Source: Candidatus Rhabdochlamydia sp.
GTDB lineage: Bacteria; Chlamydiota; Chlamydiia; Chlamydiales; Rhabdochlamydiaceae
Assembly: GCA_051648645.1 (NCBI GenBank)
Contig: JBOFFP010000003.1
Span: 64,001-128,000, forward strand
DNA length: 64,000 nt
Reading direction: 5' to 3'
The translations under genes were made by a program, and so were the position numbers. The notes under the pieces are model-generated. The model did no database searches, was not told the DNA's origin, and saw only the letters and a list, made by a program, of their open reading frames with translations. This document shows, in pieces, positions 12,262-12,867 of this stretch. Position 1 is the stretch's first letter; the number at the start of each line of letters is the position of its first letter.

Positions 12262-12867
12262 TTAATCTTGTGCGACAAATGGTAAAAGAGCCATGTGTCT
12301 TGATTGTTTGATTGCTTGAGCTAATTTGCGTTGGTAGTATGCACATACACCGGTAATCCTTCTTGGAATGATTTTACCGCGTTCTGTAATAAAACGAACT
12401 AATGTTTCAACATCTTTATAATCTATATGGCTTATTCCAGCTGATTTAAAAGGACATTGCTTGCTTTTTTTAGCAAAAGGCTTCTCAACGGTTTGTTTTT
12501 CTTCATAGCTAAATTCTATTTTTTCAGGAACGCTATCTGCTCTAAGAGTCATGAAACGTATAAGATCTTCGTTTAAATGATACTCTCTCCACATGTCTTT
12601 TAGACAGGCTCTCCAAGTGTTTTCTTTAAAATACCATGTATCAATCGTAAAATAAATTATGTAATAATATCCTTCACGGCGTTTATTGATCTCATAGGCT
12701 AGCTTTTTACGCCCTTGATCAAAGATCTTATGTTCTACTCCACCACGCTCTAAAATACCATTTGTAATTTTTTCAAGTGCCTTTTGCCTAGCTTCATCGC
12801 TTAAGGTAGCGCTTAAAACGTATATCCCTTCATAGAGCTGGCGTTTTTGTTTCTTAGCCCTTTCCAT
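12262..12867 (-). CDS. rpsF-rpsR: fused 30S ribosomal proteins S6 (N-terminal) and S18 (C-terminal)
   Basis: single 201 aa ORF: S6 motifs [25 protein letters not shown] followed in frame by S18 motifs [41 protein letters not shown]. Confidence 0.9.

Follow-up and report, generated by a model that had tools for sequence, protein, structure and literature searches.

Ribosomal proteins bS6 and bS18 heterodimerise before binding S15-rRNA, according to PMC4647458. In Bacteroidia, PMC7797042 describes a system in which bS21, bS18 and a C-terminal extension of bS6 sequester the anti-Shine-Dalgarno (anti-SD) sequence. The locus considered here belongs to a Candidatus Rhabdochlamydia species, and the known members of its family are characterised in PMC9723776 as arthropod symbionts with genome reduction. 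No report of a natural S6-S18 fusion was found in the literature searched, which covered few subscription journals, and neither 'fusion' nor 'fused' occurs in the main text of PMC3353972 and PMC9723776; the genus-fixed S6-S18 fusion is apparently undescribed in print.

Organization of the fused rpsF-rpsR gene

The window, that is, the whole analysed stretch of 64,000 nucleotides of contig JBOFFP010000003.1, contains on its reverse strand a single reading frame of 201 aa at 12262..12867(-), whose translation has zero internal stops. In the NCBIfam scan, bS6 is recognized at aa 11-110 (TIGR00166, 58.4 bits versus a cut-off of 42.9) and bS18 at aa 132-199 (TIGR00165, 106.2 bits versus 38.75), and Pfam concurs with 71.2 versus 27 bits for PF01250 (bS6) and 93.2 versus 21 bits for PF01084 (bS18). 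With a single stop-free frame and both families above their curated cut-offs, the claim of the preliminary description that S6 and S18 lie in one polypeptide is borne out, and the frame is defined as a fused rpsF-rpsR gene in which bS6 precedes bS18. Family searches of the whole assembly, which is 93% complete, returned PF01084 once and PF01250 once, both inside the 201-aa frame, showing that it is the sole copy of the bS6 and bS18 domains in that assembly.

The bS6 half (aa 1-119, 12511..12867(-)) extends to an IEF motif and is delimited by TIGR00166, the fold match to solved S6 and the C-terminal ends of relatives, which show that IEF precedes the last few residues in separate chlamydial S6. 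The junction proper (aa 120-125, SYEEKQ, 12493..12510(-)) replaces the S6 end, the stop, the spacer and the S18 start. It is followed by an S18-derived N-terminal tail (aa 126-137, 12457..12492(-)) that is now part of the tether, displays the separate-S18 pattern of L121, L124 and L129, and includes an A7 run at 12465-12471. The bS18 core with its stop codon (aa 138-201, 12262..12456(-)) matches TIGR00165 at 106 bits and lacks the CxxC zinc motif. An SD-like GAGGAG (12874..12879(-)) is located 6 nt 5' of the single start codon, while an out-of-frame ATG inside the Tyr-Glu codons (12504..12506(-)) shows no sign of being a working start. The linker SYEEKQTVE, the ATG at 12506-12504 and the A7 run are all as first described, and the reported lack of an in-frame ATG at the start of the S18 part is confirmed from the sequence and holds for GTG and TTG as well, none of the three occurring from aa 107 up to the S18 core.

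The fusion is embedded in the gene run prs-rplY-pth-[rpsF-rpsR]-rplI-ispE. Directly downstream, rplI (bL9, 11781..12248(-), TIGR00158 102.7 bits) is a separate gene with an SD-like GGGAG of its own at 12257-12261(-); upstream, pth (12898..13497(-), TIGR00447 182 bits) is separated from the fused gene by a gap of 30 nt and is preceded in the same run by rplY (bL25, 13514..14104(-), TIGR00731 148.6 bits). Autoregulation through a structured leader RNA of rpsF is a subject of PMC4647458; here, an Rfam scan of 10500-16000 with E up to 1 gave only a tRNA and no leader before rpsF, and the search for promoters and terminators near the fused gene gave nothing above chance. A tRNA-Gln(TTG) gene at 15094-15165(-) lies immediately upstream of prs. 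The latter (14145-15068(-)) encodes a ribose-phosphate pyrophosphokinase interrupted by a single in-frame TAA at 14517-14519, a position at which 5/5 genus mates carry Glu within an open stretch of 310-317 aa; the stop reflects either a recent pseudogene or an assembly error. A second, degraded prs-like copy (L172, G002:C1:1089341-1093303) adjoins the intact prs in genome G002.

Distribution in the genus and the phylum

The comparison with related genomes proposed in the preliminary description separates this genus from the other genera. Among the genus genomes, 8/9 match the locus and 8/8 of these are stop-free across both domains, and in the other genera 30/30 inspected loci (22 and 8 in two sets) keep separate rpsF and rpsR. 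The fusion is thus a rare genomic character marking the genus, with 8/8 fused versus 0/30 among the loci inspected outside it. The whole 5.4-kb region is unmatched in the ninth genus genome (G008, 85% complete), suggesting a gap in that assembly. The closest named records (L039-L041), from two 'Candidatus Rhabdochlamydia sp.' MAGs and one 'Chlamydiota bacterium', are 90-91% identical over aa 6-201; all three are fused, and they are the only fused ones among loci L031-L118. In one genus member (L008 in G004), the S18 half has clearly diverged further than elsewhere in the genus and carries several substitutions in its C-terminal helix.

In a phylum sample of 400 genomes, 396 were matched and G045 was left unscored. 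The best 150 matches, beyond which lie 539 weaker ones, include 8 that are full-length and stop-free, all from this genus, and 95 that are full-length and in frame with one to three stops. Genomes G039, G032 and G407 were considered as extra fusions on account of equal open-frame values, and a stop was found in each. Full-length matches from Moraxella and Psychrobacter were likewise rejected as fusions, being in frame yet interrupted by stops. No S6-S18 fusion turned up in 22 distant genomes searched at the family level. In a phage collection, 26 records matched; the 10 listed look like host DNA, and none of them is one fused piece.

Integrity of the junction and conservation of the frame

The preliminary description had cautioned that a single missing A might have merged two ordinary, overlapping genes. 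The A7 run and the ATG upstream of it would indeed yield two overlapping frames, and read-through-like S6-S18 entries are common in protein databases, as illustrated by the frameshift-like tails of P0122 and P0123 and by a group of 45 members, most of which retain a linker Met. Such a sequencing or assembly error is already refuted, and its probability is negligible: the locus is fused in 7/7 other genus genomes that carry it, and the eight assemblies have the same junction with silent differences between them. In the fusion, 51 nt separate the end of the S6 match from the S18 Cys, versus 72-140 nt in 14 separate relatives, so that every relative compared is longer here by 21 nt or more. For the interval 12460-12510, singled out in the preliminary description, contigs from 7/8 public runs bridge the site with no indel, spanning 12465-12510 with at least 31 bases on each side; this evidence comes from assembled contigs rather than raw reads, and the DNA analysed here may itself derive from X1 and X2. 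The X15 contig begins just 14 bases before the A-run. Contigs X15-X17 derive from RNA libraries and cover the fused gene, although they cannot show transcription.

Variation at the junction identifies the frame that is maintained. The length of the A-run differs within the genus (A7 here, longer in other genomes) with the frame unchanged, and a silent G breaks the run in L005 and L007, where the frame is still fused. Over 18 junction codons in eight kin genomes, 0, 3 and 11 columns vary at codon positions 1, 2 and 3, respectively, counts that are not independent. In the same genomes, and again not as independent events, 8/11 variable junction codons are silent in the fused frame and 3/12 in the +2 frame, whereas in the +1 frame, that of the out-of-frame ATG, 0/10 are silent and L008 has a stop. 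Only in the fused frame are most of these changes silent, and it is this frame that is under selection. The same counts bear on the suggestion that S18 is also made alone, either from the out-of-frame ATG combined with a slip on the A-run or from the in-frame Met106, so that the fused chain would be mainly an extended S6. The +1 ATG is present in 8/8 genomes, opens an S18-like basic start and may be a relic of the ancestral rpsR start. However, the +1 frame is unconserved, a G breaks the A-runs of L003, L005 and L007, P0004 has Cys in place of the Tyr that supplies the ATG, no SD-like motif stands in front of this ATG, and separate S6 proteins also possess Met106, an ordinary residue of an S6 strand; we consider separate production of S18 very unlikely.

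A natural covalent S6-S18 fusion, as initially proposed, is therefore shown at the gene level, being genus-fixed, bridged without indel and conserved in frame. The preference then expressed for the fused frame at the S18 start was also right: the TVEKPF stretch corresponds to the N-termini of separate S18 proteins, for instance TMENPF in L124 and PEGPF in L121.

Predicted structure and conserved residues

We generated a structural model of the fused protein using AlphaFold2 from an input alignment of 79 rows, in which the S6/S18 placement check found 0/54 and 0/10 rows misplaced. The model (pTM 0.71, mean pLDDT 76) contains the S6 fold as well as the helices of S18, pTM not being an interface measure, and pLDDT falls below 50 at aa 83-91 and in the linker at aa 121-133. 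Both domains are thus predicted to fold, with aa 121-133 predicted to be disordered. The modeled S6 half adopts a β-α-β-β-α-β fold (strands at 9-19, 44-60, 63-76 and 102-109; helices at 24-40 and 85-97). In a fold search restricted to aa 9-119, it matches 2j5a with a Z-score of 14.6 (rmsd 2.4 over 104 residues) and 1g1x_A with a Z-score of 12.4. For the S18 half, the best solved relative by sequence match is 7nhn_s (E 6.6e-25), and among 112 PDB sequence matches, the best 60 include no solved chain with both domains.

The pairing and RNA-contact residues named in PMC4647458 have counterparts in Y150, K151, K187, R190 and Y58, by a provisional mapping to E. coli numbering. The position of E. 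coli S18 R61 is occupied by Gln here, likewise in the unfused S18 of Moraxella. In this mapping, we take Y150 and K151 to be E. coli S18 Y23 and K24, which contact S6, and K187 and R190 to be K60 and R63, which contact rRNA. Zinc-binding (C+) bS18 proteins are defined by a CxxC motif together with downstream Cys/His ligands. This motif is found in 0/54 chlamydial S18 rows, fused or not, and the sequence reads CPFK in the present protein; its loss is therefore not tied to the fusion, and a link between fusion and zinc loss is ruled out here, as unfused chlamydial S18 also lacks CxxC. Cys175 (12343-12345(-)) is present only in P0001, P0002 and L035, the genus mates having Ser. It presumably occupies one of the usual zinc-ligand positions of S18, with an incomplete CxxC partner in this protein.

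The S6 half also carries lineage-specific features. A 27-nt in-frame insertion (12595..12621(-)) adds nine residues (aa 83-91) where helix 2 of S6 begins; it has no counterpart in 7/7 genus mates, is present in P0002, and is gap-free in the contigs of X1, X2, X3, X16 and X17. Judged from these comparisons, the insertion is specific to this species-level lineage. It resembles an old local duplication. The N-terminus is 3 aa longer here, again a lineage-specific trait, and the fused length is constant elsewhere, P0003-P0005 and the 7 genus mates all having 189 aa. P0004 is called only S6 in its source record, so that S18 can look missing in marker-gene sets, an annotation trap.

Origin of the fusion

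In a quick tree, the 10 fused rows of the genus type, among them the more distant P0004 and P0005 (84-85% identical), group on a single branch with an SH-aLRT of 99 and a stem of 0.27. In Chlamydiota, rpsF and rpsR are direct neighbours, without ssb or priB between them, and lie in frame in at least 95/400 genomes scored; given this adjacency and the frequently shared frame, one in-frame deletion suffices for the origin. On sequence evidence, the fusion likely arose once, on the genus stem, through a single in-frame deletion of about 7-17 codons that would have taken out the S6 tail, the stop, the spacer and the S18 start. Loss of the S18 start signals would make the fusion hard to reverse. 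Drift and selection on stoichiometry would both fit the data on its spread, and we favour near-neutral fixation. The locus indicates that a core ribosomal heterodimer tolerates a short-linked single-chain form through the whole history of a genus.

Proposed function of the fused protein

As S6 is not followed by a stop, all S6 has to be made initially as fused chain. This product very probably acts as a single chain whose halves pair in cis and fill the usual platform site. It would fold as a normal S6:S18 pair with a flexible tether between the halves, which, once paired in cis, would bind the central domain of S15-16S rRNA like the heterodimer, entering the 30S platform as one chain. The pTM of the whole chain is consistent with S6-S18 packing, a score that does not rate the interface. 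The fusion would also fix a 1:1 output of S6 and S18. The disordered stretch predicted at aa 121-133 could also be read as the target of a protease that cuts a precursor, releasing separate S6 and S18 into the ribosome, and eukaryotic ribosomal proteins provide cases of precursor fusions in ubiquitin-eS31 and ubiquitin-eL40. However, no cleavage motif is apparent, the residues that open the junction differ between members (S/N/D/I, then Y/C), the length is held at the 189 aa noted above, and the 18-residue tether from F119 to C138 would need no cut if the termini are near; proteolytic release is thus improbable. The single-chain reading provides a natural S6-S18 chain that is available for experiments on assembly and stoichiometry.

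Since in Bacteroidia the anti-SD tail can be trapped by S18 and the C-terminal region of S6 (PMC7797042), SD use was tested here. An SD-like tetramer precedes 35% of 996 starts versus 5% in control windows, with crude start calls, and 21%, 23% and 45% of 63, 70 and 66 starts in three unfused relatives, which are small samples of differing GC. A disabling effect of the fusion on SD use is not seen, as the enrichment lies within the range of these three relatives. The 3' end of 16S rRNA was not found in the assembly by motif. bS21 is present in this genome, and in a rough ORF list the S10-spc-alpha run shows short ribosomal-type ORFs of ordinary length.

S6-S18 fusions in other bacteria

From the best 150 matches of a scan of 1.84 billion representatives, 41 long proteins were domain-scanned; 32/41 carry both S6 and S18, one of the 32 with S6 below the cut-off. 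A profile of the 32 two-domain proteins recovered 92 such proteins among its best 120, and 90 of the 92 fall into 28 groups at 60% identity, the largest being the 45-member group mentioned above. Many S6-S18 fusions are thus present in databases, and a good share of them are probably read errors; others (P0444-P0449, P0452/P0459, P0458/P0466 and P0433/P0439) look like inherited fusions by their sequences. The ESM Atlas holds clusters of 55-61 members containing S18/S6 domains, one of them mostly from Absconditibacteriota. P0430, a single member, combines S6, S18 and L9 domains in 278 aa and is probably a read-through error.

Chlamydia-like fusions with different linkers also occur (P0433, P0439, P0007, P0008, P0006 and P0238). 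In quick trees, these fusions, known from proteins alone, fall elsewhere than this genus, and together with the unlike linkers this suggests an independent origin. The one-clade test for a shared origin weakly rejects it for P0007 (p-AU 0.047) and does not reject it for P0433/P0439 (p-AU 0.27) or P0008 (p-AU 0.15). P0433 and P0439 share their junction, are 79% identical and have no linker Met, and this pair is a candidate for a second fusion fixed within the phylum. A wider reading, in which S6-S18 is a convergent-fusion hotspot across bacteria, possibly with at least two fixed origins in Chlamydiota, and in which the tether also reshapes the platform groove by the 16S 3' tail and so changes assembly order or start-site choice in symbionts, is, taken as a whole, unlikely.

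Comparison with known systems

The bS6:bS18 heterodimer seen in the Thermus S15-S6-S18-rRNA complex (PDB 1G1X) comprises the same families as the fused protein, with the same S6 fold and counterparts of its contact residues, and the gene order rpsF-rpsR-rplI is retained here, as in the rpsF/rpsR of the canonical pair. The fusion differs from the canonical heterodimer in being one polypeptide with one start and no ssb or priB between the domains, in which neither the N-terminus of S18 nor the C-terminus of S6 is free. Separate Chlamydiota rpsF and rpsR, located in the run rplY-pth-rpsF-rpsR-rplI, provide the best S6-S18 matches at about 60-71% identity, and their S18 has the same N-terminal pattern and is likewise devoid of CxxC; these genes keep the stop, the spacer and the S18 start in 30/30 loci, whereas the fused genus does not. 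With the anti-SD system of Bacteroidia described in PMC7797042, the fusion has in common an S6 C-terminal region and S18 by the groove of the 16S 3' tail, but that system loses SD motifs genome-wide, while SD-like motifs are enriched before starts here. The other S6-S18 fusions in databases have the same order and the same two domains, with mostly 30-50% identity and unrelated linkers. The fusion in this genus involves no new mechanism, the same fusion occurring in other lineages, and is a recurrent, mechanistically simple variant of the textbook S6:S18 pair.
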